DNA of 64,000 nucleotides from an uncultured delta proteobacterium (lineage in GTDB: Bacteria > Myxococcota_A > Polyangia > Fen-1088). Made by a program: the position numbers and the translations under genes. The DNA lies in the NCBI GenBank assembly GCA_963737265.1, contig CAVTRY010000016.1, positions 320,001-384,000 on the forward strand, given 5' to 3'. The notes beneath the pieces are model-generated. The model saw only the letters and a list, made by a program, of their open reading frames with translations, was not told where the DNA came from and made no database searches. This document shows positions 34,553 to 57,445 of this stretch, piece after piece (the stretch's first letter is position 1; each line of letters opens with the position of its first letter).

Positions 34553-34560
34553 GTCGCCGT

Positions 34561-36589: not shown

Positions 36590-36602
36590 TAGCGGAGACG
36601 CC

Positions 36603-38066
36603 GTGGACCCCATCGCCAACCTTACCGCAACCCTCGGCACCTTTTCTCGCGGGGACGGGCCGCTCTATCAACAATTGGCTCAGGCCATCACCCTCGCCGT
36701 CGAGCGCAGCGACATTCTCCCCGGCACGCGGCTGCCGCCCGAACGCTCGCTCGCCGATGCGCTCAAGCTGAGTCGTACCACCGTCGTGCAGGCCTACGCG
36801 CGCCTGCGCGAGGCGGGCACGATCGAGAGCCGGCACGGCAGCGGAACCTGGGTGCGGCGCGCGGGCAAGACTGCCTGGCCGAGTCCGCAGGAGCACGAGG
36901 TCTCGTCCGCCTTCCGCCGCAACGTGGTGTTTCGTAGTTTGATCGAACGCTCGGATGACACCATCGGATTCGTCAGCGCCCAACTTCCGCCCCTGCCCGA
37001 AGTAAATGCAGCGGCCAAGGAAGTGGCTCGCCAGGGGGCCAAAAATCCCGGCGACAGTGAAGGCTACATCCCCATGGGATTGCCCGCCCTGCGCCAGGCC
37101 GTGGCCGTCCATCTCGGCCAGACTGGCCTGCCCACCCGCGCGGAGCAGGTTCTCATCACGAACGGCGCCCAGCAGGCCATCAGCCTGGTCGCCGGATTGC
37201 TGGTGGCGCGCGGCGAGTCCGTGATCACCGAGGATCCGACCTACATCGGTGCCATCGACGTGCTGGTTTCGGCCGGCGCGCGCGTGCTGACCCTGCCGGG
37301 CGCGGCGGATGGAATCGATCTCGATCGCCTGCGCGCGCTGCTGGCCGTGCGCCCACGCTTGCTTTACGTCGTGCCGACCTTCCACAATCCCACGGGCGCG
37401 CTCATGCCCGACCACACGCGCCGCGAAATCGCTCGCATGAGCGAAGAATTGCAAGTACCCGTCGTCGAAGACAACACCCTGGCGGGGATTTCTCTCGGGC
37501 GAAGTCCGCCGCCGCCGATCGCTGCCTTTGCCAAAAACGCTCCCATCCTGACCATCGGCTCGCTCAGCAAGGTTTTCTGGGCCGGACTGCGCGTGGGCTT
37601 CATCCGCGGCCCCGAGACCTGGATCGCGCGCCTCGGCCGATTCAAAGCGCTTTCCGACCTTGGCAGTCCGCTTTTCACCCAGGCCATGGCCGTGCTACTG
37701 CTCGAACACATGCCAGCGGCGGAAACAGATCGCCGCCGCGAGGTGAGCGCAAAGCTGGAACTGCAAACTCGCCTGCTCGCGAAGCACGTGCCTGCGTGGA
37801 CCTGGAAGAAGCCGGCGGGCGGCTTGCTACTATGGGCGCGCATGCCGGTTGGCGATGCTGATGAGCTTGCCGAGATCGCCCAGCGCCACGGCGTGACGCT
37901 GGTACCCGGTTCGGCCAACTCGCCCGATCACCGTTTCGCCGACTGCGTCCGACTGCCACTTGTCGCCGACGCCGCTACCATGAAAGAAGGCATCGCCCGC
38001 TTGGGCAGGGCTTGCCGAGAATATCAGCCGCGACCACGGACCGCGGGCTTCGAGGTGGTCGTGTAA
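36603..38066 (+). CDS. MocR/GabR-family regulator (GntR HTH plus PLP aminotransferase domain)
   Basis: PLYQQL, LPPERSLA, SRTTV, GSGTWV; ITNGAQQA, PTFHNPTG, GSLSK, GLRVG. Confidence 0.93.
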   Translation: MDPIANLTATLGTFSRGDGPLYQQLAQAITLAVERSDILPGTRLPPERSLADALKLSRTTVVQAYARLREAGTIESRHGSGTWVRRAGKTAWPSPQEHEVSSAFRRNVVFRSLIERSDDTIGFVSAQLPPLPEVNAAAKEVARQGAKNPGDSEGYIPMGLPALRQAVAVHLGQTGLPTRAEQVLITNGAQQAISLVAGLLVARGESVITEDPTYIGAIDVLVSAGARVLTLPGAADGIDLDRLRALLAVRPRLLYVVPTFHNPTGALMPDHTRREIARMSEELQVPVVEDNTLAGISLGRSPPPPIAAFAKNAPILTIGSLSKVFWAGLRVGFIRGPETWIARLGRFKALSDLGSPLFTQAMAVLLLEHMPAAETDRRREVSAKLELQTRLLAKHVPAWTWKKPAGGLLLWARMPVGDADELAEIAQRHGVTLVPGSANSPDHRFADCVRLPLVADAATMKEGIARLGRACREYQPRPRTAGFEVVV

Positions 38067-38109: not shown

Positions 38110-39147
38110 TCATCGCGCTCGCCGCACTGGCTGCCACTCTTTAGCCGGCGCAACTGTCCGGTTTTCTTTGCGGAACGCGCTGTAGCGAAGGATGTCGCTG
38201 GCTAGACGAGGAATTTCCCGGCTGCCGTTGCCCTTCAGCCTTTCTTTCACGTGTCCAAGGCTGTTGGCGAGCAGGAAGGCAGCGTCCACCGCCATGGCGT
38301 AAAGCAGCCCGTGGTTCTTGGCGAAATACCGTCGCCGCGACTCGAACCAGTAGGCAGGCAATCTCTTGGGTTCTCTTTGCTCGCCCGTCACGCCCGTGCT
38401 CTGCCCGGCAATATGCATGACCCTGCTTTCTGGAACGTACCAGATGGCCCAGCCGGCGGCTTTGATTTTTCGGCAGAAGTCGGTTTCCTCGAAATAGAGA
38501 AAGTAGTTCTCGTCCATGCCGCCAAGGTCTTCGACGACCTTGCGCCGAAGCATCATGGAGGCGCCGGGGAACCAATCCACTTGTTCGCAAACGCTGCCCA
38601 TGGGCCTCGTCACGATGTGGTTGCGCAAAAGACGGCTCACCACGCCCAAACGCAGCCCGTGGTCGACCTCGCTTAGCAAACTAGGATAGCGAAAAGCGAA
38701 CGGCCAAGGCTGCCGGTTCTCATCTTCCAGGCTGCTGCCGACAATCCCGGCATCGGGATGCTGGTCGAGAAAGCGCACCAGCGCACCGATGGCGCCAGCA
38801 CGCACCTCGGTGTCGGGATTGAGCAGAAAGAAGTAGTCGGGCACATCGGTAGACTCGAAGCCGTGGCGAAAACCGAGGTTGTTGCCATAAGCGAATCCGC
38901 CGTTCCTCGGCGCCGCGACGACGGTCACCCAGTCCTGCCACGCGAGCTCCGTCACGGCGCTTTGGATGGGCTCCGCATCCCCCGATGCATTGTCGATCAC
39001 CACCACCCGCAACGAGACGTTGTGCGATGCCTCGGCGTCCCGCTCGTTGGCCAACGTTGCGAGCAGCTTCTTCACCAAGGTCGAGGTCTTGTAGGTGACG
39101 ATCACCGCCAATACGGTCCGCGCGGGGTCGTTTGGCTTTTCATTCAT
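38110..39147 (-). CDS. Glycosyltransferase family 2 (WbbL/rhamnosyltransferase-like)
   Basis: VIVTY, IDNAS, NGGFAYGNN, LLNPD, MDENYFLYFEETD, HIAGQS. Confidence 0.92.
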   Translation of the reverse strand: MNEKPNDPARTVLAVIVTYKTSTLVKKLLATLANERDAEASHNVSLRVVVIDNASGDAEPIQSAVTELAWQDWVTVVAAPRNGGFAYGNNLGFRHGFESTDVPDYFFLLNPDTEVRAGAIGALVRFLDQHPDAGIVGSSLEDENRQPWPFAFRYPSLLSEVDHGLRLGVVSRLLRNHIVTRPMGSVCEQVDWFPGASMMLRRKVVEDLGGMDENYFLYFEETDFCRKIKAAGWAIWYVPESRVMHIAGQSTGVTGEQREPKRLPAYWFESRRRYFAKNHGLLYAMAVDAAFLLANSLGHVKERLKGNGSREIPRLASDILRYSAFRKENRTVAPAKEWQPVRRAR

Positions 39148-39196
39148 CGGAGTCGGGGACCTCTCTTTGCCCACGCTAGCGCCGAGGGTTTCCAAT

Positions 39197-42118
39197 CTAG
39201 GCGGCATCCTTCGGCTCGCTGTTGCTGCTGTCGAAGCTCGCACGCATGCGGGACGCCACACTGGCCACGTACGGCTCGCGCAGAAGCGTGCCGTGTCCCC
39301 CGGGTACATCGACAACCTCGGCCTGGTAGCCAAGGTAGTCCTGCCAACCGAAGAATGGATCCGCGAGGATCTCCACCAGCGGTGCATCGCTGCCTTTGCC
39401 CTCTGTCGCACGGTAGATCACCGCCTGCGTTCGCTGCAGTTTCGCAGGAACGTACTCGCTCTCCGCGAAAGCAAAGACCTCACGCACCGTTGGAGCGGCA
39501 ACGGCTCGGGGCCAATTCTTCCCGCCCGGAAAGACGTGACGAAGAAGGAAAAGCAACGAGCGGACACGGGCCTGCCGGTAACGATGCTCAACCTCGTAGC
39601 CAAGATAGCCGGTCAGTTTCTCCACACCTTTGCGCACGGTCGCGCCAGCCGTGGCGAGCGAAACGTCGCGGAATACTCCGGAAAACCGCTGCCAGCTCCG
39701 CATTCTGGCGGTGGTTCGTTTCTGCGCTTGCGGCGGCGAAGCTTCGATGATGGCCAGGTGTCGGATCTCCTCGCCGTAGCCCTCAAGCTGGCGCGCGACT
39801 TCGAATGCGATGAGCCCGCCCGCGCAGAGCCCGCCAAGGTGGTACGGTCCCGCCGGCTGAAGCTTGCGGATCTCCTTCACGTAGTGGCCCGCCATTTCCG
39901 CGATGCTGGTGTGGGCCATGGCAACCTTGTCGACGGCGAATGGTTCGATCCCGTAGACCGAGACGTGCTTCGGCATGCGCAGGGCGAGGTTGCGATACAG
40001 CAAGGTCTCGCCGTCGCCGTCGTGAATAAGGAACAGGGCTGGCCCCTGGCCGCCCTCTTTGAGTCGCACGACGCAGCTTTCGCGGCTGTGGACCTTTTGT
40101 TTGATGGCCCGCGCGAGCTGGCGCGGCGTACTGGCATCGAGAATGGTGGCCATCGGCAACCGCACCCCGTACTGCTCTTGAATGGCGCCGAAAAGCCGAA
40201 CCGCGATGAGGGAATTGCCTCCTAGCTCGAAGTAGTCTTGCTCGGCGCCGACTGCGGAGAGACCTAGCAACTCTTCGAAGAGAAGGCAGATACGCATTTC
40301 GAGCTCGGTGCGCTTGCCGCCCGGCTTGATGGGATCCGCCTTGGCACGAGCTGCTGCGGCGGCGGGCACCTCGACGAGCGATCCGTCGTGGTGGCAGCGC
40401 GCCTGCACGGTAAGCCGGTCTGGCGATCCGTTGCGCTCGACAACCAAATGCCCCGGGATACCGAATGGTCGCGGTTGGTTTTCTTCGTCGACGACCCGCA
40501 AGGACAGCGGATGTGCGGACGCGCCGCCCGACAGATACTTGGCGACCCAAGCAGGTGGTGCCGCCGAAACCTGGGCGAAGCGGGCCAAGATTCGCTCGCG
40601 CTCGCCACCCAGCAGATCGACCTCCCGCATGGGTTGGGTTGGATTCCTTACCAGCTCGCGAACCAGGTTCTTGTAGCAGCTCGCCCAATGCTCGATGGTC
40701 TCCTCGTCGAAGAGCTCCGTCTTGAACTCCACCGCCCCGGCAATGCGTTCGCCCCAGTCCTTGACCCACAAGGTGATGTCGTTGGTGGCGGCGCCCGATT
40801 CCAGCTCGAGTTGCGACAGCGAGAGATTGCCCATGTGGGAGCCGCGCTGGCTGACCTGCTGAAAGCTGAATTCGATCTGAAAGGCAGGCGCGAAGCCACC
40901 GGCATCGGATGGAGCCGAACGCACATCCAAGCGCTCGAGGGGGTATTCCTGATGTTCGTAGGCCGACAGGCAGAAGTCGCGCAGGGAAACGGCGAATTCG
41001 GCGAAGGTTCGGTCGAGATCGACATGAGTGCGCAGAAGCAGGATGTTGACGACGGGACCTATCAGTCCTTCAAGGCTAGGTTGGGTGCGAGCGTCCACCG
41101 GAGACGCGATGACGATGTCGCGCGTGGTCCCCATTCGCGCCAGCAACGCGTACAGCGAGGCCAGCAGGGTGATTTGCGGAGTGACCGACGCCTGCTTGGC
41201 GAAGCGCCGGATGGCATCCGCGGCCTCCACCGGAATCTCGAAAGGAATGCCCTTGCCCAGCGCCACAGCTACGCGCGGGCGCGGCCGATCGGTCGGCAAC
41301 GGAAGGGGTGGCAATTCTTGCCCGAGCGCGGTCTTCCAGAAGGTCGCCTGGTCGGCTATCTCCTGGGTGACTCGCTTGCGCTGCCACGCCACGAAGTCCT
41401 CGTAGCTAATGGGCAGGGGCGCGGGCGGCCAAGGCTCGCCCTGGGTGATGGCCGCGTAGCCCCCGCGCATCTCCTGCCAGAACACGTCGAACGACCAGCC
41501 GTCGAAGATCAGGACATTGAAAGCCGTGTGCAGCACGTACACTTCGGGGCTCACCCGTACGAGAGTAAAGCGAAAGAGCGGGGGCTGCCGGATGTCGAAT
41601 TCAACGTGGGAAAGATCCGCGAGCAACTCGCGCAGACGTTGCGGCCGCTCGTCGTCGCTGTACCCGGTGAGGTCGGTGGTGGGCAGAGCTAGCGGAACGT
41701 CCGCAAGCACCTCTTGTTCCGCGTTTTCCCCATCGAGGAGAAAACGCGTGCGCAACGGCATGTGGCGCGCGACAATCCAGCGCAGGGATTCGGTCAGCGC
41801 CGAGACATCGAGTGCCCCGCGCAACAAGAACGCAGTCGGTACGGCACTCGAGATTCGGCCGGTAATGACCGCCCTCCGCTGGGTGAAGGACAGCGGGAAA
41901 TGCCCTTTCGCCACGGTACGCGGAATCGCCGAGCCAGCTCCGGATTTCCGCGAGACATCCGCAAGCAGGGTCAAAAGCTCGGCCTTGGCCGCGCGGATTT
42001 GGGCGGCGAGATCGGGTGTCAGCACGCCGGGCGCCGCGATACAACGCAGACGATCGCCGTCGACGACCAGCTCGATCTTTTGCTCGCGAATGACTCCGAG
42101 CAGTTCGCCTACTTTCAA
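39197..42118 (-). CDS. NRPS terminal subunit: TubC-type docking domain, degenerate C, vestigial A, T, thioesterase with Cys nucleophile
   Basis: TTG start overlaps the upstream stop; DGDRLRCIAAPGVLTP; C motif reads FNVLIFDGWS; T YFELGGNSL; TE GGLCAGG and GGH. Confidence 0.85.
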   Translation of the reverse strand: MKVGELLGVIREQKIELVVDGDRLRCIAAPGVLTPDLAAQIRAAKAELLTLLADVSRKSGAGSAIPRTVAKGHFPLSFTQRRAVITGRISSAVPTAFLLRGALDVSALTESLRWIVARHMPLRTRFLLDGENAEQEVLADVPLALPTTDLTGYSDDERPQRLRELLADLSHVEFDIRQPPLFRFTLVRVSPEVYVLHTAFNVLIFDGWSFDVFWQEMRGGYAAITQGEPWPPAPLPISYEDFVAWQRKRVTQEIADQATFWKTALGQELPPLPLPTDRPRPRVAVALGKGIPFEIPVEAADAIRRFAKQASVTPQITLLASLYALLARMGTTRDIVIASPVDARTQPSLEGLIGPVVNILLLRTHVDLDRTFAEFAVSLRDFCLSAYEHQEYPLERLDVRSAPSDAGGFAPAFQIEFSFQQVSQRGSHMGNLSLSQLELESGAATNDITLWVKDWGERIAGAVEFKTELFDEETIEHWASCYKNLVRELVRNPTQPMREVDLLGGERERILARFAQVSAAPPAWVAKYLSGGASAHPLSLRVVDEENQPRPFGIPGHLVVERNGSPDRLTVQARCHHDGSLVEVPAAAAARAKADPIKPGGKRTELEMRICLLFEELLGLSAVGAEQDYFELGGNSLIAVRLFGAIQEQYGVRLPMATILDASTPRQLARAIKQKVHSRESCVVRLKEGGQGPALFLIHDGDGETLLYRNLALRMPKHVSVYGIEPFAVDKVAMAHTSIAEMAGHYVKEIRKLQPAGPYHLGGLCAGGLIAFEVARQLEGYGEEIRHLAIIEASPPQAQKRTTARMRSWQRFSGVFRDVSLATAGATVRKGVEKLTGYLGYEVEHRYRQARVRSLLFLLRHVFPGGKNWPRAVAAPTVREVFAFAESEYVPAKLQRTQAVIYRATEGKGSDAPLVEILADPFFGWQDYLGYQAEVVDVPGGHGTLLREPYVASVASRMRASFDSSNSEPKDAA

Positions 42119-45100
42119 AAATCGACCTCCTCGGTTTCGCCCGCGGCGCGCAGTTGCCCGTCGCCGCCGCTCCGGCCGACAAGCAGCGCCGCCTCGACGT
42201 GCGCCGACAACTCCTCGATGGTCTGCGCGCGGAAGACTGTGCGCAACGGAATGTCCACGGCGAAGGTTTCGCGAATCCGATTCAGCATTCGCACTGCCAG
42301 CATCGAATGCCCGCCGAGAGCGAAGAAGCCGTCGCGCAATCCCACCCGCCCGACGCGCAGAAGATCGGCCCACATCGTCGCCATCTGCGTCTGGATCGTC
42401 GTCACCGGAGCGACGTAGTCTTCCCCGCCCGCCTGGCCGAGCTCGGTCGCGGGTAGCGCCTTGCGATCGACCTTGCCATTCGGGGTTAGCGGCATGGCAT
42501 CGAGCACCACGAGGTGCTGCGGAACCATGTAGGGCGGCAAACGGTCGCGCAGGTGCTTGGTCAACGTGGCGGGGTCGATGGTCTGCCCGGGAGCAGGAAC
42601 GACATAGGCCACCAGCCTGGCGTCGCCGACGGCAATCTCACGAATCATGACAGCGCTTTGGCGAACGCTTGCGTGCTGATCCAAGGCGGACTCGATTTCG
42701 CCGAGCTCGATTCTGAATCCGCGCAACTTGACCTGGCCATCGTTGCGCCGCTCGAAATACAGGCGGCCGTCGCCGCTCCAGCGCACCAGATCGCCGGTTC
42801 GATACATGCGCGCGCCGGGCTCCTTCGCGTAGGGATCGGGCACGTATCGTTCGGCGGTCAGGTCGGGCCGATTGAGATACCCGCGCCCCACGCCAAACCC
42901 GCCGATGTAGAGCTCGCCGGCAGCTCCCGTGGGAACCAGCTGGCCCGCCCCATCGAGCAGATAGACGGTGGTGTTGTCGACCGGACGCCCGATGCTGATG
43001 GGACCATCGGTGGTGTCGATGCGCCCGCAGGTCGACCAGATGGTGGTTTCGGTTGGCCCGTAGAGATTCCACAGACTACCGACCCGGCCGAGAAGGTCAT
43101 TGGCCAGCTCGCGTGGCAAGGCCTCCCCCGTGGACATGGCCTTGAAGTTCTTGCCGCCGACGAAATTCGCCTCGCACAGCAGGCGCCACGTCGCCGGCGT
43201 GGCCTGCAACACCGTCGCACCCACGTCGTGCAGGAATTTCGCCAGCGCCGGGCCGTCCATGGCTACGTCTCGCGAGGCGATGACCGTGCGGCTTCCCACG
43301 CAAAGGGGCAGGAACAATTCGAGCGCCGCGATGTCGAACGAGAGCGTCGTCACCGCCACGAGAACGTCGCCGGCGGAAAGCCCCGGCACGCGCGACGCGC
43401 TAGCGAGGAAGTTGATCACGCCGAGTTGCTCGACCTGCACGCCCTTGGGCTTGCCCGTCGAACCCGAGGTGTGCAGCACGTAGGCGAGCTGATGCGGATC
43501 CGCCCCGCGCGGAGGGGCGTCGTCGCGAGCGCCGTCTTCCTCGTCGATCCACAGGCGTGTCAGCGAGCCCTGCGGAAACACCTCGGCCAGCCCATGTTCG
43601 GTGACCAGCACGCGGACCTTCGCATCTTCGAGGACGAAGGCCAACCTAGCCGGCGGATAGTCCGGATCGAGCGGAACGTAGGCGGCTTCGGCCTTCCACA
43701 CCCCGAGCAGAGCAACCACGAGTCGAGTACCGCGCTCGATGCACAGGCCGACGCAATCGTCTTTGCCCACCCCCAGCTCTTTCAGCTTGTGGGCAACTTG
43801 GTTGGCTCGCCGGTCGAGCTCGAGGTAGGTGAGCGAGCCGCGATCGTCGCGCACGGCCACCGTATCGGGCGTGCGCCGAGCTTGCGCCTCGATGAAATCG
43901 ATGGCGGACGAAACCGCGGGCAGCTCGCGCTGGGTGGCATTCCATTCCGTCAGCAAGCACGTCTGCTCGTCGTCGGGAAGGACGCGCATTCTGCCGAGTG
44001 GCGTGCCGGGCGCGGCGACCACCGCCTGGAGCAACGTGGTCAGCTCGCGCAGCCAGCGCAGAATCGTCCGATGGTCGAAGAGACGTGTGTTGTAGGTGGT
44101 CTCGAGCACCAAGCCGTCGTCGGTCTCGATGCCGTTGAAGAACAGCTCGAAGCGCTCGAAGGCACGCGGGTTGCTGATGAAGGATCCAGTCGCAGCGCCG
44201 AAGCGGACGGCCGGCATCCGCTGATCCAGGTTGAACACCACGGGGATAAGCGGAATCCTGGCCGGGTCGCGGGGAACTTCCAGCTTCTTGAGTAGGGCGC
44301 CGAAGGACAGCCGCTGGTGCTCCGCTCCCTCGACGATTTGCCGTTTCAGCGTGCGAACGTGGTCAAGGAAAGCGGCCTCGGGATCGAGAGTCACGCGCAG
44401 AGGCAACGTATTCACGCAATGCCCAACCAGCCCAGGCATTCCCGCCGCAGCCTGCCCTGCCGCCGGCAGGCCCATGGCGAACTCGGTTTGTCCGGTCAGG
44501 CGATACAGCCAGGCATCGACCGCGGCCATGAGGGTTGCCACCAGGGTGGCCGAAGCCTGCTTCGCTACCCCACGCAAGCCGTCGAGCAGCGCCCGATCGA
44601 GCAACCAGTCCTCGCGCCGTGCATCGAGCTTGAGCTCGCGCGCTCGCGGTCTGTCGACGGGAAGCTCCAAACTGGACGGAGCGGTGCCAAGAACACCGAG
44701 CCAGTACTTCTCAGCCTCCTCCGCATCCGCCCCGTGCATCCCCCGCAGCTCGGTCACCGCGAAATCGGAGAACAGCGGCGCCGTGGCGAGTTTGGCAGAC
44801 CGCTCTTCTTTTAGGGCGGCGTAAAGCTCGCCAAGCTCCGTCAGGACTACGCCTGTCGACCATCCATCGCAGACGATGTGGTGGGCGGTTAGCACCAGTT
44901 CGTACTGCTCGGGTTCTAGACGAATCAGCAATGGGCGAAAGAGCGGCCCGCGCACGAGATCGAAGGGCACGCGCACCTGTTCCGCGACGACTTCCTTGCG
45001 CCTGGCTTCGCGCACCTCGGGGGCCAGCGAACCGAGGTCGATGACCGTCAGCTTCGCGCGTGGCTCCGCCTCCACCAGGTACTGGGTGCCGTCGCCCGTG

Positions 45101-45339
45101 AAGGTCGTGCGCAGGGCTTCGTGGCGGCGGACCAAATCCGCCACGGCATGGTCGAGAATGTCGGCGTCGAGGGGCCCGCGAATCGCCAACGAGACAGACT
45201 CGTTGTAGGCAAGGTTGGCTTCTTCTCCCAACAAGGCAATGGCGAGCCAAATCTCCTGCTGTGGCTCCGTCACCGGAGCGGAAAGAACGATCGCACCGCT
45301 GGCGAAGGGATCGTGGTCGACAAGAGTGGTGCTTTTCAT
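42115..45339 (-). CDS. NRPS module C-A-T (A predicted Gly-like)
   Basis: HHIVCDGWS, HTSGSTGKPKG, NLYGPTE, YRTGDL, PNGKVDR, FFALGGHSM. Confidence 0.93.
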   Translation of the reverse strand: MKSTTLVDHDPFASGAIVLSAPVTEPQQEIWLAIALLGEEANLAYNESVSLAIRGPLDADILDHAVADLVRRHEALRTTFTGDGTQYLVEAEPRAKLTVIDLGSLAPEVREARRKEVVAEQVRVPFDLVRGPLFRPLLIRLEPEQYELVLTAHHIVCDGWSTGVVLTELGELYAALKEERSAKLATAPLFSDFAVTELRGMHGADAEEAEKYWLGVLGTAPSSLELPVDRPRARELKLDARREDWLLDRALLDGLRGVAKQASATLVATLMAAVDAWLYRLTGQTEFAMGLPAAGQAAAGMPGLVGHCVNTLPLRVTLDPEAAFLDHVRTLKRQIVEGAEHQRLSFGALLKKLEVPRDPARIPLIPVVFNLDQRMPAVRFGAATGSFISNPRAFERFELFFNGIETDDGLVLETTYNTRLFDHRTILRWLRELTTLLQAVVAAPGTPLGRMRVLPDDEQTCLLTEWNATQRELPAVSSAIDFIEAQARRTPDTVAVRDDRGSLTYLELDRRANQVAHKLKELGVGKDDCVGLCIERGTRLVVALLGVWKAEAAYVPLDPDYPPARLAFVLEDAKVRVLVTEHGLAEVFPQGSLTRLWIDEEDGARDDAPPRGADPHQLAYVLHTSGSTGKPKGVQVEQLGVINFLASASRVPGLSAGDVLVAVTTLSFDIAALELFLPLCVGSRTVIASRDVAMDGPALAKFLHDVGATVLQATPATWRLLCEANFVGGKNFKAMSTGEALPRELANDLLGRVGSLWNLYGPTETTIWSTCGRIDTTDGPISIGRPVDNTTVYLLDGAGQLVPTGAAGELYIGGFGVGRGYLNRPDLTAERYVPDPYAKEPGARMYRTGDLVRWSGDGRLYFERRNDGQVKLRGFRIELGEIESALDQHASVRQSAVMIREIAVGDARLVAYVVPAPGQTIDPATLTKHLRDRLPPYMVPQHLVVLDAMPLTPNGKVDRKALPATELGQAGGEDYVAPVTTIQTQMATMWADLLRVGRVGLRDGFFALGGHSMLAVRMLNRIRETFAVDIPLRTVFRAQTIEELSAHVEAALLVGRSGGDGQLRAAGETEEVDF

Positions 45340-45343
45340 GGCG

Positions 45344-47518
45344 CTATACCTTCTCAAGAGGAATATGTCTTAAGGGGTTTATGGGATCGGGCACGAACCA
45401 GGCCGGGTTTCCCTTGGCATCTCGGCCCAGGCGCGCGCCCAGCGCGGGCGGTGCATCGGCGCGGATTTGCACCACGGGGCGGGGATAGAAGCCACCCTCT
45501 TGCATCGCCGCGATGGCCTGCTTGAACACCTCAATGACCGCCGCCAGATCTTCTTCCTGATGGGCCAGGCTGACAAAGCACGGCCGCCCATCCCACACGT
45601 GCACGCCGCGCTCTCGTGCGTGGGCGAACAGGATCTCGCCATAGGGGGTCTCGGCGGTCTGCGCGAACTTCATCACGCTGCCAAAATGATGAAGCTCGAC
45701 CGGCGCCTCCTCGGCGCGAAAAAGTTGATTAAGGCTGTCGACGAAGCGCTCGGTCTTCTCGTTGAGCCGCCGTTGCAGATCCGGGCCCTGCTCTTTCATG
45801 TACAGAAGCGCCGCCCTGGCCGCGGCCATCGCGATGGGGTGGCGCACGAACGTCCCGGCGAAATAGGTCACCCCTACCTCGGGCGCCGACGCGTCCCCGT
45901 ACTCCCAGTGTCCGCCATCCAGCGCATCCATGTACGCGCGTTTGCCAGCCACAATCCCGATCGACAGCCCGCCGCCCACTACCTTGCCGTAGCTGCCGAG
46001 GTCGGCCTGAATCCCGAAGTGCTCCTGCGCACCGCCGGGGGCCACCCGGAAACCGCATACCACCTCGTCGAAGATCAGGGCGATGTCGGTCTCCTGGGTG
46101 AGCTGGCGCAGGTCTTTCAAGAACGCAGCCGGCTGAATGTGAGGCGCGCGGCTTTGCACGGGCTCGACCAAGACCGCGGCGATTTCGTCCGCGCGCTGGC
46201 GGATCACGTCGAGCGCCGCCGGATCATTCCATGGCAAAACAAGCATATTCTCGACCGAGGCGCGCGGGATGCCGGGCGCGGCGGGCATGGTTCGCGCCTT
46301 GGTTGCGCGAACGACGACCTCGTCGAAGATGCCGTGGTAGGCACCGGCGAACATCACCACCAGATCGCGCCCGGTCACCGTGCGCGCCAGCCGCAGCGTC
46401 GCCAGCACCGCCTCGGAACCGGTATTGCAAAAGGCGACCCGGTCGAAGGGAACGAATTCGCGAAACAGCGTCGCCACTTCCTCGGCCAGCCAGGTTTGCG
46501 GCCCGATCTCCATGCCAAGCTCCATCTGCTCCGCGATGGCCTTGCGAATGAAGGGCGCGCCGAACCCGAAAAAATTCGACCCGTAGCCGCTCAACAAATC
46601 GATGTATTCGTTGCCATCCAGATCCCAGAGCCGGCAGCCCGACGAGCGCCTGGCCACGATGGGATAGACCAGCTCCTTGAGGCGCGGACGAAAACCGGCG
46701 ACGGTGCGCGGATCGGAGATCTGCTTGCGGTTGCGGGCCGTAAATGCCTTGGACGCCGCGGTCTTCGCCGTGTAGCGCGCGATCAGACGTTCGAGGTGCT
46801 TGTTCTGCGTCGGGGTCAGATCCTTGCCGCTCGTGCGATCGATCACGAGCTGCGGTCCATGCCCACGGGGCGGTTCGCTGGGCTGCGCGGGCGAATTGGA
46901 ATCGACAGCACCCGCAGGCGAGCCGGCGGCGGCCTCGCCGGGAGTGGATGCCCGCGCGACGGTCCCATCCGGCACGGGCAAGGTCTGGCCCGACGCCGCG
47001 CCCGACACCGACTCGGGCACCAGCGCTTGGCCGCCCGAGAGCAACTCGAGCTGACGACGCATAATGGAGAGTTGGCCGCGCACCAACTCCTCGACGGCGG
47101 ACATTCCTGGTGCGGAAAATTGGGAGAGTGCCATCGTCTCACTCCTTTGCAAGCGAACGGGTGCGACCGTCGGGCGAGCGGGCCGCGGCGCCGCGCTCAC
47201 AGATGCCGACGCTTCCGCGGATCCGCCAGGTTTGGTCGCCGGAGCGGCGTCCGCGAAAGCGGAAGCAGGCAAGCTTCCATCGAGGTGCTCGGCCAGTTGC
47301 TGACAACTCGGAAATTCTTCGGCCAGATCCTTTAGCTTGACCTTGACCTTGAATTGCTTGCTCATCGCCAGTGCGGCTTGGGTCAGCAGCAGCGAATCCA
47401 ACCCGAGATCCGAGAAGGTGGCCGAAGGAGCTTCCGCCGAAAGATCGCGCCCCGAGATTTCCTCGAGGACAGCCTGAACACTGCCAACGATACGAAGTAC
47501 ACGGCTTGGTGATGTCAA
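45344..47518 (-). CDS. ACP plus class-III (glutamate-semialdehyde aminomutase-like) aminotransferase didomain
   Basis: FSDLGLDSL carrier motif; DPRTVAGF, WDLDGNEYID, NTGSEA, YHG, LIFDEVV, YGKVVGGG, FAGTF. Confidence 0.92.
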   Translation of the reverse strand: MTSPSRVLRIVGSVQAVLEEISGRDLSAEAPSATFSDLGLDSLLLTQAALAMSKQFKVKVKLKDLAEEFPSCQQLAEHLDGSLPASAFADAAPATKPGGSAEASASVSAAPRPARPTVAPVRLQRSETMALSQFSAPGMSAVEELVRGQLSIMRRQLELLSGGQALVPESVSGAASGQTLPVPDGTVARASTPGEAAAGSPAGAVDSNSPAQPSEPPRGHGPQLVIDRTSGKDLTPTQNKHLERLIARYTAKTAASKAFTARNRKQISDPRTVAGFRPRLKELVYPIVARRSSGCRLWDLDGNEYIDLLSGYGSNFFGFGAPFIRKAIAEQMELGMEIGPQTWLAEEVATLFREFVPFDRVAFCNTGSEAVLATLRLARTVTGRDLVVMFAGAYHGIFDEVVVRATKARTMPAAPGIPRASVENMLVLPWNDPAALDVIRQRADEIAAVLVEPVQSRAPHIQPAAFLKDLRQLTQETDIALIFDEVVCGFRVAPGGAQEHFGIQADLGSYGKVVGGGLSIGIVAGKRAYMDALDGGHWEYGDASAPEVGVTYFAGTFVRHPIAMAAARAALLYMKEQGPDLQRRLNEKTERFVDSLNQLFRAEEAPVELHHFGSVMKFAQTAETPYGEILFAHARERGVHVWDGRPCFVSLAHQEEDLAAVIEVFKQAIAAMQEGGFYPRPVVQIRADAPPALGARLGRDAKGNPAWFVPDPINPLRHIPLEKV

Positions 47519-47817
47519 GGGTAAGGTCCTTGTTAAGTTGGATGCATTTTAAGTTGGTTACGTTCGTCGCACATTGCGATTCTTGTCAAATAATCTAGGC
47601 CAAATTATTCTGCGCCGAAACACTCTACATGCACCTTTTTGGGGGGGTATGGCTGGAAACCCGCCCGACTAGATGCATCACCTCACCTCTTCTCTTCGCG
47701 ATCCTGCGCGAATCCTGTTTCGGCGCTGGGGATAGAGTAGATTTCCTGGCTAGCCTCTCCGATTCAGTTCTCCGTCAACCCAGACAACTGGCGCCAAGAA
47801 GCCAACCGAGAATAGCC

Positions 47818-50800
47818 ATGACCAATCGCACCACGCCGCCCCTGGACAGCGCACAGGCCCACGAGCTCCTCGATAGGTGGAATCCCCGACGGTCGTTTGA
47901 CCCCGGCCCGTGCTTGCACGAGCGATTCGAGGCCGTGGCGACCGCGCGGCCCAATGCGGCGGCGTTGGCCTTCGAGAATGACCGCATGACGTATGCGGAC
48001 CTCAATCGCCGCGCCAACCAGTTGGCCCACACGCTTTTGGCCCGGGGCGTGGGACCGGACGCCTTGGTCGGGTTGTGCGCCGAACGATCCCTCGACTTGG
48101 TGGTGGGTCTGCTCGGCATCCTCAAGGCCGGCGGCGCCTACGTGCCGCTCGATCCGAGCTATCCCGCCGACCGGCTTCGCCACATGCTCGACGATTCGGG
48201 CATCACGGTCTTGGTGACTCAAAAGGGCGCGGCGCCGGATCTTCAGGCCGCGGCCGTCGCCAAGGGCGCGGCGGTCGTGCGCCTCGATGGTGAGCTTTCC
48301 GGCAACACCGCCAATCCCGCCCACCTTACCCGTTCCGAGAATCTGGCGTACGTCATCTACACCTCCGGCTCCACCGGCAAGCCCAAGGGTGCGCCCATCA
48401 GCCACGGCAACGTCACCCGGCTTTTCGCCGCCACCGACGCGTGGTTCGGGTTCAAGGACAGCGACGTTTGGACGCTCTTCCACTCGTACGCCTTCGACTT
48501 CTCGGTCTGGGAATTGTGGGGCGCTCTTCTCCACGGTGGCCGCCTGGTCGTCGTGCCCTATCTCGTCAGCCGATCGCCGGATGCGTTCTACGCCCTGCTG
48601 GGTTCGCAAGGCGTGACCGTGCTCAACCAAACGCCGTCCGCCTTCCGCCAGCTCGTGCAGGCCGAGATCGACGCCCCGGCCAAACAGAACCTCGCCCTGC
48701 GCACCGTAATCTTCGGCGGCGAAGCTCTGGAATTGCAGGGGCTGCGTCCCTGGTTCGAGCGCCACGGCGACGAACGGCCGCGCCTGGTCAACATGTACGG
48801 CATCACTGAAACCTGCGTGCATGTGACCTACCGGCCCATCACCGCGCAGGACGTGCGCGACGGGCAGGGCAGCGTCATCGGCGAGCCTCTCCTCGATCTG
48901 CAAATCTATCTGCTCGACGAAGAACAGCACCTGGTGCCGGCCGGCGAGCCGGGCGAAATCTACGTGGGCGGCGCCGGCCTTGGAAGAGGCTATCTCAACC
49001 GTCCCGAGTTGACGGCCGAGCGCTTTCCTACCTTGTCGCTGGCCGGACGGCCGCCGGAGCGACTTTACCGCAGCGGCGATCTGGCGCGGCGGCTGCCGTC
49101 CGGCGACCTCGAGTATCTTGGCCGCATCGATCACCAGGTCAAGCTGCGCGGCTTCCGCGTCGAGCTGGGAGAAATCGAGTCGGTGTTGGCGCAGGACGCA
49201 GACGTGCGCGAGGTGGTGGTGTTGGCCCGGCAAGACGAACCGGGCGATCAGCGCCTGGTCGCGTATCTGTCCATGCGCCAGCGCGTCGAGGTGGACGAAA
49301 GCGGCGTCATCGAGCGCCTGCGTGCGCTCGCGCGGGCGCGGCTGCCCGAGTACATGGTGCCGTCGGCGTTCGTCTTTCTTGGCGCCTTGCCGCTCACCGA
49401 AAACGGGAAGGTCGATCGCCGCGCGCTGCCCGCACCCAAAAGCTCACGTGGCGATCGGGACCGCCCGTTCGCCGCGCCTCGGTCGGCGACCGAAATCGCC
49501 ATCGCGGAGGTCTGGCGGCGGATCCTGCGCCTCGATCGAGTCGGCGCGGACGAGAGTTTTTTCGACCTGGGCGGCACGTCCCTGCTTGCCGTGCGGGCCG
49601 CGGGCGAGGTGCGGCGGCGCCTGGGCGTGGACGTGCCCGTGGTCAAGATGTTCGAGCATCCGGTCCTGCAAGACCTGGCGCGCGTCTTGGAGGTCACGGG
49701 CAAGAACCACGGATCGGTGGCGCCGAGACCGCGCCGGCGAGCCCTGACGCAGGGCCAAGCCGAACGGGACATCGCGATCATCGGCATGGCGGGGCGCTTC
49801 CCGGGCGCGCCCGACGTGGCGACGCTGTGGCGGCACCTGCTCGATGGTGTCGATTCGGTGACTTTCTTCTCCCCCGACGAGCTGGATCCACGCGAGCGCG
49901 AAGCGAGCACGCTGCCCGACTACGTGCGGGCGCGCGGCATTCTCGCCGACGCGGACAAGTTCGACGCCGAATTTTTCGGCGAGAACGCACGCATCGCGGA
50001 CATCACCGATCCGCAGCAGAGGGTGCTGCTCGAACTAGCGTGGGCGGCGCTGGAAGATGCGGGCGTGGTGCCGGAGCGCTACGACGGTCTTGTCGGTGTC
50101 TACGCCGGCACCGGTCACAACACCTATTTCAGCCGCAACGTCCTGCGGGCTCCCGAGCGCGTCGAGGCCGTGGGCGAGCTGCAAACCCTGCTCGCCAACG
50201 ACAAGGATTTCGTCGCCACGCGAATCGCGCACAAGTTGAACCTGCGCGGACCGGCGCTCAGCCTGCACACCGCATGTTCGACTTCGCTGGTGGCGACGAG
50301 CGTGGCCGTGCACGGCCTGCGCGCCTATGAATGCGACATCGCCCTGGCCGGCGCCGTGTCGGTGACGGTTCCCCAGGCGAGCGGCCACATCTATCAAGAG
50401 GGTGCCATGTTGTCCGCCGATGGTTACACCCGGACGTTCGACGCCAAGGCCACCGGCACCGTGTTCAGCGACGGCGGTGGCGTGGTCGTTCTCAAACGAC
50501 TGGCCGACGCACGCGCCGACGGCGACCGCATCTACGCCGTGATTCGCGGCGCCGCCACCAACAACGACGGCGCCGGCAAGGCCAGCTTCATGGCGCCGAG
50601 CGTGTCCGGACAAGCCGCCGTCATCGCTGCCGCGCAAGAAGATGCCGGCGTCGATCCCGAATCCATCAGCTACGTCGAAGCGCATGGCACCGCAACCCCG
50701 CTCGGCGATCCCATCGAAGTGGAAGCCCTCACGCGCGCGTTCCGGCTGCGCACGGCGAAAAATGGCTTCTGTTCCATCGGCTCGGTAAAGAGCAATCTCG

Positions 50801-52587
50801 GCCACCTGACCGCCGGCTCGGGCGTCACCGGCCTCATCAAGACCGCGCTCTCGCTTTGGTCGCGGACGTTGGTTCCTTCGATCCACTTCGAGTCCCCCAA
50901 TCCCAACATCGATTTCGCGAGCTCGCCCTTCCGCGTGCAGACCGCGCGCGAGCCGTGGACACGCGCGGAAGCAAGCACGCCCCTGCGCGCGGGCGTGAGC
51001 TCGTTTGGCGTGGGCGGCACCAACGCCCACCTCGTTCTCGAAGAAGCACCCGCGGCGCCAGAGGCGGGCCCCCAGCGCGGCTGCCACCTGCTCACCCTGT
51101 CGGCGAAAAGCGAAAGCGCGCTCGAAGAAGCGACCCGCCGTCTGGCAGCGTGGCTCGGCGACAACCCCCAGGCGAATCTGGCGGATGTCGCGTACACATT
51201 GCAGGAACGGCGAGCCGCGTTTCCGCGCCGGCGCTTCTTGGTCGCGAAAGACAGCGCGGATGCATCGGCGTCGCTGGCGAAGCTGCCGCCAGCCCGCTCG
51301 GGCACGCGAATGGCCGAGGCGCGCGCGCCCGAGGTGGCCTTCCTGTTTCCTGGCCAGGGCAGCCAGTATGTCAACATGGGGCGCGGTCTGTACCAAAGCG
51401 AGCCCGTGGTCCGCCAAGCCATCGATGCCTGCGCCGAGATCTTGCGCGAACCACTCGGCGAGGATTTGCGCGGTGTACTTTTCGCCGAACCCGGAACCGA
51501 GGCGGAGGCGCAAGCAAAGTTGCAACAGACGCGCTACACGCAGCCCGCGCTTTTTACCCTCGAATATGCGCTCGCCATGTGGTGGCAAAGCGCCGGCGTT
51601 CGGCCGGCCGGCATGCTTGGACACAGCGTGGGCGAGTTCGTGGCCGCGCATCTGGCTGGCGTGTTCAGCCTGGAAGATGGCCTGCTTCTTGTCGCCGAGC
51701 GGGCCGCGCTCATGCAGTCGATGCCGCCGGGATCCATGCTGGCGGTGCGAGCGCCCGCCGCGCAGATCGAGGCGCGGCTTCCCGAGGAGTTGGCGCTGGC
51801 GGCGAGCAACGGACCCGCGCTGTGCGTGGTAGCGGGCCCGCACGTCGCCGTCGCGGCCTTCGCCAAGGTGCTGGAAGGCGAGCGCATTCCCAGTCGCGCG
51901 CTGCAAACCTCCCATGCCTTCCACTCCCCCATGATGGAGCCCGTGGTCGAGCCACTGGCCGCGGTCGCGCGCAAGCTCACCTTGTCGCCGCCACAAATTC
52001 CCTTTGTCTCCAGCGTCTCGGGCGATTGGATCACCGCCCTGCAGGCCACGTCCCCCGACTATTGGGCGCGCCACCTGCGCGTTCCCGTGCGCTTCGCCGA
52101 GGGATTGCAGACCTTGTGGGCGGATCCCACCCGCGTGCTGCTCGAAGCGGGTCCGCGCGCCACCAACACCACCATGGCCAAGCAGATGGCGAAAGATTCC
52201 GCGCGCCAGCTCGCCGTCGCCTCCCTGTCCGACCAGCCGGAGCTCGAGGTTGAATCGCTCCTGCGCGCCGCCGGAATGTTGTGGAGCGCGGGCGTGGCCG
52301 TGGACTTCCGCGCGCTCAACGCCATCGGCGTTCGCCACCACGTCTCGCTGCCAACCTATCCCTTCGAGCGGCAGCGGCACTGGATCGAGCCCAACCGCGA
52401 GACGGCGACCGCACCATCGGGAGAAGCGGCCGTCCAACCATCGGCCGATGAGGCCAGCCAACCATCGACCGTCCCTGACGCCGTCGCGCCTGCCCCGACC
52501 GGCGAAAGTCTGGCGTGGCTTTTCGACGAACAGATGCAAGTCATGGAAGCGCAGCTAACCTTGCTGGAGGCGAACAGGAAGTCGTAG
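47818..52587 (+). CDS. Hybrid NRPS-PKS A-T-KS-AT with no terminal ACP
   Basis: YTSGSTGKPKG, FDFSVWE, FFDLGGTSL; KS TACSTS, EAHGT, NLGH; AT GHSVG and HAFH; ends after LPTYPFER with no carrier motif. Confidence 0.93.
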   Translation: MTNRTTPPLDSAQAHELLDRWNPRRSFDPGPCLHERFEAVATARPNAAALAFENDRMTYADLNRRANQLAHTLLARGVGPDALVGLCAERSLDLVVGLLGILKAGGAYVPLDPSYPADRLRHMLDDSGITVLVTQKGAAPDLQAAAVAKGAAVVRLDGELSGNTANPAHLTRSENLAYVIYTSGSTGKPKGAPISHGNVTRLFAATDAWFGFKDSDVWTLFHSYAFDFSVWELWGALLHGGRLVVVPYLVSRSPDAFYALLGSQGVTVLNQTPSAFRQLVQAEIDAPAKQNLALRTVIFGGEALELQGLRPWFERHGDERPRLVNMYGITETCVHVTYRPITAQDVRDGQGSVIGEPLLDLQIYLLDEEQHLVPAGEPGEIYVGGAGLGRGYLNRPELTAERFPTLSLAGRPPERLYRSGDLARRLPSGDLEYLGRIDHQVKLRGFRVELGEIESVLAQDADVREVVVLARQDEPGDQRLVAYLSMRQRVEVDESGVIERLRALARARLPEYMVPSAFVFLGALPLTENGKVDRRALPAPKSSRGDRDRPFAAPRSATEIAIAEVWRRILRLDRVGADESFFDLGGTSLLAVRAAGEVRRRLGVDVPVVKMFEHPVLQDLARVLEVTGKNHGSVAPRPRRRALTQGQAERDIAIIGMAGRFPGAPDVATLWRHLLDGVDSVTFFSPDELDPREREASTLPDYVRARGILADADKFDAEFFGENARIADITDPQQRVLLELAWAALEDAGVVPERYDGLVGVYAGTGHNTYFSRNVLRAPERVEAVGELQTLLANDKDFVATRIAHKLNLRGPALSLHTACSTSLVATSVAVHGLRAYECDIALAGAVSVTVPQASGHIYQEGAMLSADGYTRTFDAKATGTVFSDGGGVVVLKRLADARADGDRIYAVIRGAATNNDGAGKASFMAPSVSGQAAVIAAAQEDAGVDPESISYVEAHGTATPLGDPIEVEALTRAFRLRTAKNGFCSIGSVKSNLGHLTAGSGVTGLIKTALSLWSRTLVPSIHFESPNPNIDFASSPFRVQTAREPWTRAEASTPLRAGVSSFGVGGTNAHLVLEEAPAAPEAGPQRGCHLLTLSAKSESALEEATRRLAAWLGDNPQANLADVAYTLQERRAAFPRRRFLVAKDSADASASLAKLPPARSGTRMAEARAPEVAFLFPGQGSQYVNMGRGLYQSEPVVRQAIDACAEILREPLGEDLRGVLFAEPGTEAEAQAKLQQTRYTQPALFTLEYALAMWWQSAGVRPAGMLGHSVGEFVAAHLAGVFSLEDGLLLVAERAALMQSMPPGSMLAVRAPAAQIEARLPEELALAASNGPALCVVAGPHVAVAAFAKVLEGERIPSRALQTSHAFHSPMMEPVVEPLAAVARKLTLSPPQIPFVSSVSGDWITALQATSPDYWARHLRVPVRFAEGLQTLWADPTRVLLEAGPRATNTTMAKQMAKDSARQLAVASLSDQPELEVESLLRAAGMLWSAGVAVDFRALNAIGVRHHVSLPTYPFERQRHWIEPNRETATAPSGEAAVQPSADEASQPSTVPDAVAPAPTGESLAWLFDEQMQVMEAQLTLLEANRKS

Positions 52588-53115: not shown

Positions 53116-53706
53116 TTACTCTGCGTCTGCCCCGACCTCGGCCGTCGCCCTGCCAAGGAGATCGGTCACTGCAAGTCTGACGGCCCAGTCGTGCAAGTAG
53201 GCCAGGTCCAGGCTGCCCCGCTGTGCGCGTAGGACGCCGAGGATGTCGCGCCACTGGCGATCCGAGACCTCGCCGCCTTGGCGAAACCAGAGCATCTTGC
53301 GCAAGATGGTGTCTTCGGGTGCCTTGATCATGAGGGTGCGGCCAGCACGAACCACGACCGGCCGACAGCGTGAGAACTCGGATTCATCGTAGGGGCCGTG
53401 GGGGTGCCCGAATAGGTCGATCTTCAACACCAGCGGCAGATAGAAGACGTTTGCAGATCTGCCGTGCAGGATGGCGTCTCGTAGCATGTCGCCGTCGACT
53501 TCGAAGTCCGCGCCAAGCAGTTCACCAAACTCGCGCACTTTCCCGACGGCCATGTCGATAACGAAGTCGATGTCGTTGGTGGCGCGCGGTTCGCCATCGA
53601 TCGAGCTGGCCAGACTTCCGCCAACGAAATAGGACGCGCCAACCTTCTCCAGCACCTCCGCGACCCGCAATGCGATGTCGACGACGTCTTCAAGCCTGTC
53701 GCTCAT
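53116..53706 (-). CDS. Nucleotidyltransferase-fold protein, putative TA component
   Basis: GGSLASSIDGEPRATNDIDFV, KIDLF, PEDTILRK, RQWRDI. Confidence 0.8.
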   Translation of the reverse strand: MSDRLEDVVDIALRVAEVLEKVGASYFVGGSLASSIDGEPRATNDIDFVIDMAVGKVREFGELLGADFEVDGDMLRDAILHGRSANVFYLPLVLKIDLFGHPHGPYDESEFSRCRPVVVRAGRTLMIKAPEDTILRKMLWFRQGGEVSDRQWRDILGVLRAQRGSLDLAYLHDWAVRLAVTDLLGRATAEVGADAE

Positions 53707-53971: not shown

Positions 53972-54430
53972 CTAGGGATCGTTTTGATGGATGATGGCCG
54001 ACGCGAACACGAGGTCGTGGCCGCCAGGCAGCTCGTCGCTGTAGAAGTCCCCGGAGGCGAGCGTCACCCGATCGAGCACGCCGGCTTCACGCAACCGTTC
54101 GCGCGCCAGCTCGACCACCGGCGCGCGGTCGAAGAGCGTGGCCCGCATTTAGGGCGAGGCCGCGAGGAACGCGAGCGTGTACGTTCCCGAGGCGCCACCC
54201 ACGTCGAGCAAGCGCCTGCTTGCACCGGGCTTGACGATCTCGACGATGCGTGCCGCGAGCGGCGCGGCGATGACATGCATGCCGCCAATGAACGACAGGA
54301 GCGACGGTTCGTCAATCTTCATTTCGGCCTGCGGACCTGCCACCGCGCGCGTGAGCCCGGCCCAGCGGCCCCAGAGGATTGCGTTGTGGCGGACCATGGG
54401 CAAGACGGACCCAGGGCGGCCGCGACCGTC
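53972..54430 (-). pseudogene. SAM-dependent O-methyltransferase remnant
   Basis: FIGGMH, LLDVGGASG, in-frame TAA at 54149-54151, then same-frame ATLFDRAPVV...GDFYSDELPGGHDLVFASAIIH; N- and C-termini missing. Confidence 0.8.
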
Positions 54431-57411: not shown

Positions 57412-57445
57412 GTCGTGACGGACTCTTTCTGGTGCAAGGGTGCGA

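Follow-up and report, generated by a model that had tools for sequence, protein, structure and literature searches.

A window of 64,000 nucleotides from an uncultured delta proteobacterium (contig CAVTRY010000016.1, positions 320,001 to 384,000 of the forward strand) carries a 14.5-kb cluster of five genes. The cluster is an uncharacterised small hybrid of non-ribosomal peptide synthetase (NRPS) and polyketide synthase (PKS), and two of its parts are unusual. The line terminates in a cassette of a thioesterase (TE) with cysteine at the nucleophile position and a family 2 glycosyltransferase (GT2). Just ahead of this ending lies a 'pass-through' module whose condensation (C) domain lacks its histidines. 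We propose that the cluster is functional and self-contained and that it makes a short glyco-conjugated peptide, a reading to which we give a probability of about 0.45, somewhat below even odds.

An initial annotation, made from the letters of the window, had described a split line. It placed adenylation (A), thiolation (T), ketosynthase (KS) and acyltransferase (AT) domains on the plus strand. On the minus strand it placed an acyl carrier protein (ACP) with an aminotransferase (AMT), a C-A-T module, an altered C domain (C*) followed by T and TE, and a GT2. This layout is real: Pfam finds every domain, in that order and on those strands. We refer to the plus-strand gene as E and to the minus-strand genes as D, C, B and GT2 (Table 1). 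The label C* was apt, and the A+T-rich spacer put at about 300 bp measures 299 bp and holds the lowest-GC stretch of the window. Pfam and open reading frame (ORF) scans of 36.5-55 kb agree that no ketoreductase (KR), exporter, resistance gene or phosphopantetheinyl transferase (PPTase) is present there. Three features lay beyond that first description: a remnant of about 85 residues of an A domain, the cysteine at the TE nucleophile and a TubC-type docking domain.

D, C, B and GT2 form a tightly packed minus-strand operon, and E stands alone on the plus strand. The gap between D and C is 4 nt. B starts with TTG, which overlaps the stop codon of C (TTGA; 4 nt overlap), and 49 nt containing an element like a ribosome-binding site (RBS), GAGAGG, separate B from GT2. 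We place the start of E at Met64 of its ORF, the most likely site, because GC content at third codon positions (GC3) jumps there from 0.54 in the 189 nt upstream to 0.82 within the gene. Coding GC3 across the cluster is 0.75-0.82, and all five reading frames are intact.

How firmly does the GT2 belong to the line? The initial annotation had counted it as a part, and this holds in so far as gene fusions and recurrent adjacency of TE and GT2 tie the two together; it is not universal, in that two related genomes (G011 and G012) keep their GT2 elsewhere. In genome G007 the B ortholog and the GT2 share one 1321-aa frame, read as docking domain-C-T-TE-GT2, and G074 has an open frame of 1858 aa whose tblastn reading ends in A-T-TE-GT2. 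We compared 51 long GT2 homologs (605 aa or more, E at most 1e-30), and 22 have a thioesterase domain (PF00975). The combinations are docking domain-C-T-TE-GT2 (three metagenome proteins, 1314-1332 aa), C-A-T-TE-GT2, formyltransferase-A-T-TE-GT2, A-T-TE-GT2, KR-TE-GT2 and TE-GT2. Wherever the nucleophile could be mapped in the fused proteins, it is cysteine with a single exception (22/23).

Adjacency tells the same story. All 53 GT2 places (E at most 1e-40) were fetched from 89 genomes of the order, and at 12 of them a TE gene lies directly upstream on the same strand. These include 9 of the 14 places whose GT2 is at least 50% identical to that of the window, against 3 of 39 below this threshold. 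TE and GT2 genes overlap by stop and start at four of the TE-adjacent places. A quick maximum-likelihood tree, with G007 left out, puts the window GT2 in a clade of 12 rows with support of 100: six TE-adjacent, three near an NRPS and three neither. When a TE-GT2 query was run against 1.84 billion representatives, nine of the best 150 rows spanned both halves and two more did so in part; fusion amounts to about a dozen clusters at 50% identity. By these comparisons, the link of TE-GT2 to assembly lines is real and the fusion is rare. The predicted complex of the T-TE part of B (residues 600-971) with the GT2 scored 0.00, which counts neither way on binding. That the GT2 clade and B-like T-TE proteins occur together in the genus is suggestive; the genomes are kin and the cysteine was checked in part of the hits, and we have not used this pattern.

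The GT2 itself passes the Pfam cut-offs for PF13641 (40.6 bits; cut-off 27) and PF00535 (35 bits; cut-off 23.3). Its AlphaFold2 (AF2) model (predicted local distance difference test, pLDDT, 89.4) has a GT-A fold. The best Foldseek matches are ppGalNAc-T2 and other ppGalNAc-transferases, along with GlfT2, at template modelling (TM) scores of 0.5-0.6 and 12-16% identity; a sequence comparison with the PDB gave no match. Relatives carry the name of WbbL, a lipid-linked rhamnosyltransferase, assigned automatically by the source pipelines. With the WbbL-type rhamnosyltransferases, GlfT2 and MftF the GT2 shares Pfam families and fold, but it falls short of the curated NCBIfam cut-offs for the rhamnosyltransferase TIGR01556 (46.4 bits versus 200.55) and for MftF (45 versus 280). 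We know of no characterised GT2 fused to an NRPS TE.

Among the fusions, the metagenome proteins P0129-P0132 are single-module proteins of about 1750-1810 aa with formyltransferase, A, T, TE and GT2 domains and a cysteine in the TE. Their A-domain code, DLYDMS[LV]IWK, is close to what we take to be the code for Cys. Such proteins would couple a formyl-aminoacyl unit to a sugar enzyme, an arrangement of which we know no described counterpart.

Gene B, which precedes the GT2, is degenerate in a way that has been conserved. Its C* domain lacks both histidines in four of four genus orthologs, where the motif reads F[NS]xL[IV]FDGWSF; the HH pair is present in 118 of the 153 C-domain rows of the fetched loci. 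Pfam gives no AMP-binding match in B, and no adenylation domain of its own was found there beyond the remnant; in a by-eye alignment the remnant matches the A6-A8 part of the full A domain of an Aetokthonos homolog. The TE nucleophile is cysteine in four of four genus orthologs and serine in the Aetokthonos protein. Orthologs from G011 (67% identity), G007 (48%) and G012 (47%) share the degenerate state throughout (4/4). Between the window and G011, identity is 73% in C*, 77% in T and 64% in TE, and drops to 45% in the A remnant, the least conserved part. The corresponding dN/dS ratios of 0.15 (C*), 0.12 (T) and 0.17 (TE) are rough, since dS exceeds 1 and is saturated. The T serine, the TE cysteine and histidine and the docking elements are all retained. 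The nearest relatives of C* that still have the HH pair (about 34% identity) are xHHxIWDGWSF domains in the third modules of X-Gly-Gly lines, and we read B as the relic, still retained, of a C-A(Gly)-T-TE module.

Odd terminal modules are found farther afield. In cyanobacterial kin (Nostoc, Aetokthonos and others; loci L077, L081-L083, L085, L086, L088 and L094-L097) the docked terminal C domain reads MHCIVCDGASS, with cysteine for the second histidine, and at most Nostoc-type loci the third A code, which usually ends in K, has Q as its last letter (DTENMGALTQ is one case). To judge from these motifs, the line in cyanobacteria looks as if it also bears a conserved odd terminal module. Aetokthonos also has GT2-hexapeptide-GT2-hexapeptide genes upstream. 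Cysteine occupies the TE nucleophile position in 25 of the 55 TE rows of this line set. The loci concerned (L046, L047, L051, L055, L100, L043, L075, L080, L089 and others) include metagenome-assembled genomes (MAGs) labelled Acidobacteriota, Verrucomicrobiota, Nitrospira and Leptolyngbya. On this count, Cys-TEs have a wider distribution than one would expect from the few that have been characterised.

The genes that would build the chain have their catalytic motifs. In E the KS retains its cysteine and both histidines (TACSTS, HGTAT, NLGH) and the AT shows GHSVGE and HAFH, all read by eye; we take HAFH to mark a malonyl-specific domain. The ten code positions extracted from the first A domain, DFWNIGMVHK, are presumably the Stachelhaus code for Thr, and at 15 of 90 loci compared, related lines begin with this code. 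D keeps its ACP serine, matches the aminotransferase family PF00202 (Aminotran_3) at 1.5e-53 and has a pyridoxal phosphate (PLP) lysine, K512 in YGKVVGGG, that is invariant in six of six aligned homologs. One scan confirmed 588 relatives of this ACP-AMT protein. The C domain of gene C is canonical (PF00668, 2.1e-81), and the code of its A domain agrees at 8 of 10 positions with what we take to be the Gly code. Gene C ends in an acidic tail (...TEEVDF), of which EEV[DE]F is kept in four of four genus orthologs, and B begins with a docking domain of family PF18563 (TubC_N; 46.1 bits, cut-off 26). Tail and domain are a probable docking contact from C to B. The assembly logic suggested earlier (amino acid plus malonate, an aminotransferase, then Gly) fits the Thr-type code, HAFH, K512 and the Gly-like code.

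From the domain inventory and motif states, their conservation and the coupling of TE to GT2, we infer the following route. E would activate L-Thr and extend it with malonate on the ACP of D, E and D being held together by paired Gln/Leu helices, to give a 4-amino-3-oxo thioester on D. The aminotransferase would turn the 3-keto group into an amine; chemically, the expected result is a 3,4-diamino-5-hydroxyhexanoyl thioester. Gene C would condense this with Gly, and the chain would move to B through the contact of the EEVDF tail with the TubC-type dock. There B would act as a non-extending or trans-loaded relic of the former C-A(Gly)-T-TE module: either the chain passes through unextended, or the A domain of gene C loads the T domain of B, giving X-Gly-Gly. 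The Cys-TE of B would then off-load the chain, perhaps by hydrolysis or as a lactam, and the coupled GT2 would add a sugar, the simplest sites being the hydroxyl from Thr or a free amine.

Can E and D form one module when they are separate, divergently transcribed proteins? KS-AT-ACP-AMT-C units had been said to be normally one polypeptide. This was too strong: KS-AT and ACP-AMT are split in three (G000, G007, G012) of the five lines that we read at the E-D junction. The tail of E carries a Gln/Leu-rich helix that mimics the helix preceding the AMT domain of D (Table 1), and the KS-AT proteins of the three split lines known in the genus (G000, G007, G012) all carry such a tail helix. In G008 and Aetokthonos, where the proteins are truly fused, the AT-ACP linker lacks a Gln/Leu helix. 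At 24 loci the helix falls within a long open frame of the fused type, and no second copy occurs at any of them. The survey used a strict regular expression that is too narrow for all split lines; in G008, for example, it finds nothing. Judging from this distribution, the tail helix probably serves to dock the parts of the split module, and the paired helices offer a plausible way for E and D to meet despite divergent transcription. We rejected an apparent E-D fusion in G012 (an open frame of 2313 aa), which is a shadow frame; G012 is split.

The divergent arrangement is plain in the window, as first described, and it is peculiar to this genome. Orthologous E-D-C-B lines are found in G007 and G012, and D-C-B in G011; in G007 and G012 the order is collinear, and E is inverted only in the window. 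E is 47-51% identical to E of G007 and G012, which have Val-like codes, and 61% identical to the Thr-type E of L057, an unrelated MAG locus. To judge by these identities, E is not simply an inverted ortholog of the G007 and G012 genes. Around E we found only short imperfect pairs of inverted repeats, and we accepted none as a trace of inversion. The G011 line continues into a 2051-aa C-A-T-KS-AT gene, with no E-like gene within 1 kb upstream of D.

Aminotransferases embedded in PKS modules are known from MycA and ItuA (mycosubtilin, iturin) and from McyE and NdaF, where KS-AT-ACP-AMT is followed by a C domain. The cluster shares with MycA and McyE this order and a class-III, HemL-like AMT with its PLP lysine. 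It also shares the presumed conversion of a beta-keto thioester to a beta-amino acyl unit, followed by condensation with an amino acid. The parts expected of such a module are here: Cys-His-His in the KS, GHSxG in the AT, the ACP serine, an AMT after the ACP and a canonical C domain. It differs in that the module is spread over three proteins (E, D and C), the Gln/Leu helix is present twice, the first gene is transcribed away from the others and only one extending NRPS module follows. The starter differs too, being an amino acid (A-T, Thr-type code) and not a fatty acid or polyketide, so that the beta-amino unit would carry vicinal amines.

Terminal modules without an activating domain of their own also have precedents: the C-T-TE of SyrE is loaded in trans, and the KS0-ACP modules of trans-AT PKSs do not extend the chain. 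Like these, B has a carrier domain without its own activating domain just before the TE. Here, however, the C domain lacks the HH motif as well, and no trans-loading enzyme like SyrB1 or SyrC is encoded nearby.

For the thioesterase, the closest precedents are SulM (sulfazecin) and ObiF1 (obafluorin). According to the available part of the source, these are terminal type I TEs with a cysteine nucleophile and small products; they represent a less common type, and the characterised examples close strained, four-membered rings from a beta-nucleophile on the C-terminal residue (PMC11298585). B shares with them, as far as that text describes them, the cysteine in place of serine at the nucleophile elbow. 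A further mark of the ring-forming type is that the catalytic Asp has shifted to the loop that follows strand beta7. The Cys-TE of B differs from what is described there in standing in a cassette with a GT2. The C-terminal residue here is by predicted specificity Gly, with neither beta-hydroxyl nor beta-amine, so a strained ring of this type would not be expected.

A myxobacterial pathway bears a partial likeness. The accessible text on myxoglucamide (mxg) from Cystobacterineae sp. MCy9003 reports a hybrid NRPS/PKS with an essential glycosyltransferase and several C domains that lack the second histidine (PMC13638107). These traits are shared, and the same text gives a fatty acyl-AMP ligase (FAAL) starter, a Glu-derived gamma-amino acid and no AMT, and in that part describes no TE-GT2 coupling (PMC13638107). 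We therefore rejected the myxoglucamide pathway, as described there, as a different cluster. The flavipulchrins were likewise rejected. The initial annotation had recognised no characterised product for the layout, in agreement with our searches. All NCBIfam equivalogs of named NRPSs and PKSs score far below their cut-offs. A literature search, supplements aside, found no description of the layout, of an NRPS TE-GT2 fusion or of a 3,4-diamino acid derived from Thr and malonate.

If the proposal is right, the Cys-TE-GT2 cassette, for which the literature search found no paper describing it, is a portable device that adds sugars to the products of very different NRPS and PKS lines or releases those products onto sugars. 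A conserved His-less, A-less 'pass-through' module would bear on the role of the second histidine of C domains. The A-T-KS-AT-ACP-AMT logic would turn an ordinary amino acid into a beta,gamma-diamino acid; the number of ACP-AMT relatives in our one scan marks this logic as widespread, and our searches found no characterised product for it. At only 14.5 kb, the cluster is small enough for heterologous expression to be realistic.

Several points weigh against a functional line that makes a glyco-conjugated peptide. G011 and G012 hold the orthologous D-C-B genes and keep the GT2 ortholog (68% and 65% identity) on another contig, where it adjoins MocR or PMT_2 and a TonB/ExbBD/receptor set and has no TE upstream. 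Within the clade, the nearest kin of the window GT2 are these backbone copies (65-72% identity; G001, G004, G011 and G012). A gamma-amino thioester with a free amine is expected, on chemical reasoning, to cyclise to a gamma-lactam or tetramate before it reaches gene C. The Gly assignment itself rests on eight of ten code positions. C* is without its catalytic histidine and B without an A domain, and we know of no mechanism that moves a chain from the T domain of C to the T or TE domain of B. No sugar-nucleotide genes or exporter for the cluster were found at hand. In G011, finally, the D ortholog (L011/L021, contig C9) holds one in-frame TAG.

Alternatively, the GT2 might be a cell-envelope gene that was already resident and takes no part in the pathway; the NRPS-PKS genes would simply have landed beside it, and the product would be a free small peptide or lactam. 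The conserved backbone around its nearest kin (MocR, PMT_2 and the ExbB/ExbD/TonB/receptor set, not an NRPS) is what such a history would leave, and the orthologous lines are followed by other genes in G012 and by another NRPS-PKS gene in G011. G001 speaks the other way: its GT2 heads a different NRPS gene string, lying between MocR and GT2, that also ends in a Cys-TE. (In G004 the contig ends 467 bp upstream of the GT2, which puts the upstream context beyond reach.) The 49-nt gap on the same strand with its RBS-like GAGAGG, the fusion of B-type protein to GT2 in G007 and three metagenome proteins, and the TE directly upstream at 9 of the 14 close places argue against it further, and we consider a resident GT2 improbable. 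Still less probable is a decaying relic that makes no product. The loss of both histidines in C*, the poorly conserved remnant of an A domain, an E inverted from its partners relative to G007 and G012, the TAG in D of G011, an E read in two frames in G012 and the lack of a dedicated exporter or regulator would all suit it. The initial annotation had itself named decay as a possible failing. What we find is five intact frames with coding GC3 in the range given above, a degenerate state held in four of four orthologs down to 47% identity with C* and T best conserved, and a B protein whose T serine, TE cysteine and histidine, and docking elements persist.

A further possibility, which sharpens the suggestion in the initial annotation of transfer to a glycan, is that glyco-conjugation is the release step. 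Instead of hydrolysing or cyclising, the Cys-TE would acylate a sugar, a glycolipid or a lipid-linked glycan with the peptidyl chain, at one of its hydroxyls or amines; the GT2 would make or extend this acceptor, and the product would be a peptide-decorated envelope glycoconjugate. The cassette recurs fused behind very different lines, single modules included, and plain hydrolysis from formyltransferase-A-T-TE-GT2 or A-T-TE-GT2 would yield a trivial product. The near-constant cysteine of the fused TEs, the automatic naming of the GT2 family after a lipid-linked rhamnosyltransferase, GlfT2 among the best fold matches and GT2 homologs fused to LmbE-type deacetylases point in this direction. So do flanks with two PMT_2 (GT-C) genes, a polyprenyl-phosphate-type GT2 and a methyltransferase; these are, however, not syntenic with the line in relatives. 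The operon contains no gene for an acceptor, flippase or polysaccharide export, peptide O-glycosyltransferases are also among the best fold matches, and the literature search found no biochemical precedent. We regard this release mode as possible and somewhat unlikely. Its fullest form, which we think rather unlikely, would make the cassette an undescribed line ending in which the TE hands the chain to a sugar acceptor made or processed by the GT2, release and glyco-conjugation being one event. A Thr-derived vicinal-diamine peptide, possibly a metal-binding head group, would be placed on a sugar or envelope glycolipid, and the His-less C* would be a scaffold for handing the chain over without catalysis, an NRPS counterpart of KS0 modules. 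The functional line with a GT2-modified peptide remains our preferred reading.

Table 1. Features of the cluster (positions in the 64,000-nucleotide window)
Feature	Position	Strand	Basis and remarks
GT2 (GT-A fold) glycosyltransferase	38110..39147	-	Pfam, AF2, Foldseek; 345 aa
Gene B: TubC-type dock, His-less C*, A remnant, T (GGNS), Cys-TE	39197..42118	-	Pfam, alignment
Cys codon at TE nucleophile, GGLCAGG	39824..39826	-	alignment
A-domain remnant between C* and T	40319..40576	-	alignment by eye; about 85 aa
C3 motif of C*, NVLIFDG instead of HHxxxDG	41498..41518	-	alignment
Gene C: C (HHIVCDG)-A (DILQMTLIWK, Gly-like)-T	42115..45339	-	Pfam
Gene D: ACP (LGLDSL) and class-III (HemL-like) aminotransferase	45344..47518	-	Pfam, NCBIfam; 724 aa
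Pre-AMT Gln/Leu helix of D, QLSIMRRQLELL	47039..47074	-	alignment of D
Divergent spacer between D and E	47519..47817	.	composition scan; 299 bp, GC 0.508
Gene E: A-T-KS-AT	ORF 47629-52587, likely start 47818	+	Pfam; 1589 aa; no ACP, KR or N-terminal C domain
C-terminal Gln/Leu-rich helix of E, QMQVMEAQLTLL	52531..52566	+	6 residues before stop

The source assembly comprises 6.55 Mb in 25 contigs (completeness 99.5%, contamination 7.6%), and among named relatives a MAG labelled 'uncultured Myxococcales bacterium' is the closest. The only Condensation-domain matches in the assembly are those of genes C and B; further T-TE proteins are present elsewhere. Three PF01648 matches elsewhere in the genome mean that PPTases are available in trans. 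A word search of sequencing runs found one soil-metagenome DNA run containing 0.55 of the words, and small shares in others; it listed no RNA run. The spacer contrasts with a window GC of 0.639: the lowest-GC 150-bp windows of all 64 kb lie at 47476-47675. It contains one sigma-70-like site on the plus strand (47583-47611), a candidate promoter by consensus match only.

On the GT2 side of the cluster, a branched-chain aminotransferase gene (35550-36476, minus strand; NF005146, 357 bits, over cut-off) diverges, across 57 bp, from a gene for a MocR/YczR-like PLP regulator (36534-38066, plus strand). The two look like a backbone pair of regulator and target outside the cluster. The flanking glycosylation genes mentioned above lie at 32699-35317 (minus), 54429-55160 (minus), 55287-55919 (plus) and 55945-57552 (minus); the best NCBIfam matches of the polyprenyl-phosphate-type GT2, AglJ and ArnC-like, are below cut-off. 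Beyond E, an ORF of 196 aa at 53116-53706 (minus) has coding-like GC3 (0.77) and no match in Pfam, NCBIfam or related loci. The remaining ORFs at 52.6-54.4 kb resemble shadow frames, none with a match in Pfam or related loci.

Some details of the related genomes deserve mention. The NRPS string headed by the GT2 in G001 includes an asparagine-synthase-like gene and an acyl-CoA dehydrogenase. The E ortholog of G012 (L014, contig C48) changes frame around locus position 15054-15118; this break and the TAG in G011 may be assembly errors or decay. The GT2 ortholog divergently adjoins a conserved gene set in G001 (L101/L102), G011 (L106) and G012 (L107), which Pfam resolves in the G001 copy as unknown, ExbB, ExbD, TonB, unknown and TonB-dependent receptor. 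The set was not found in the window, and the receptor ortholog lies on another contig. Its place next to the GT2 in these relatives may point to a system that takes up a secreted product.

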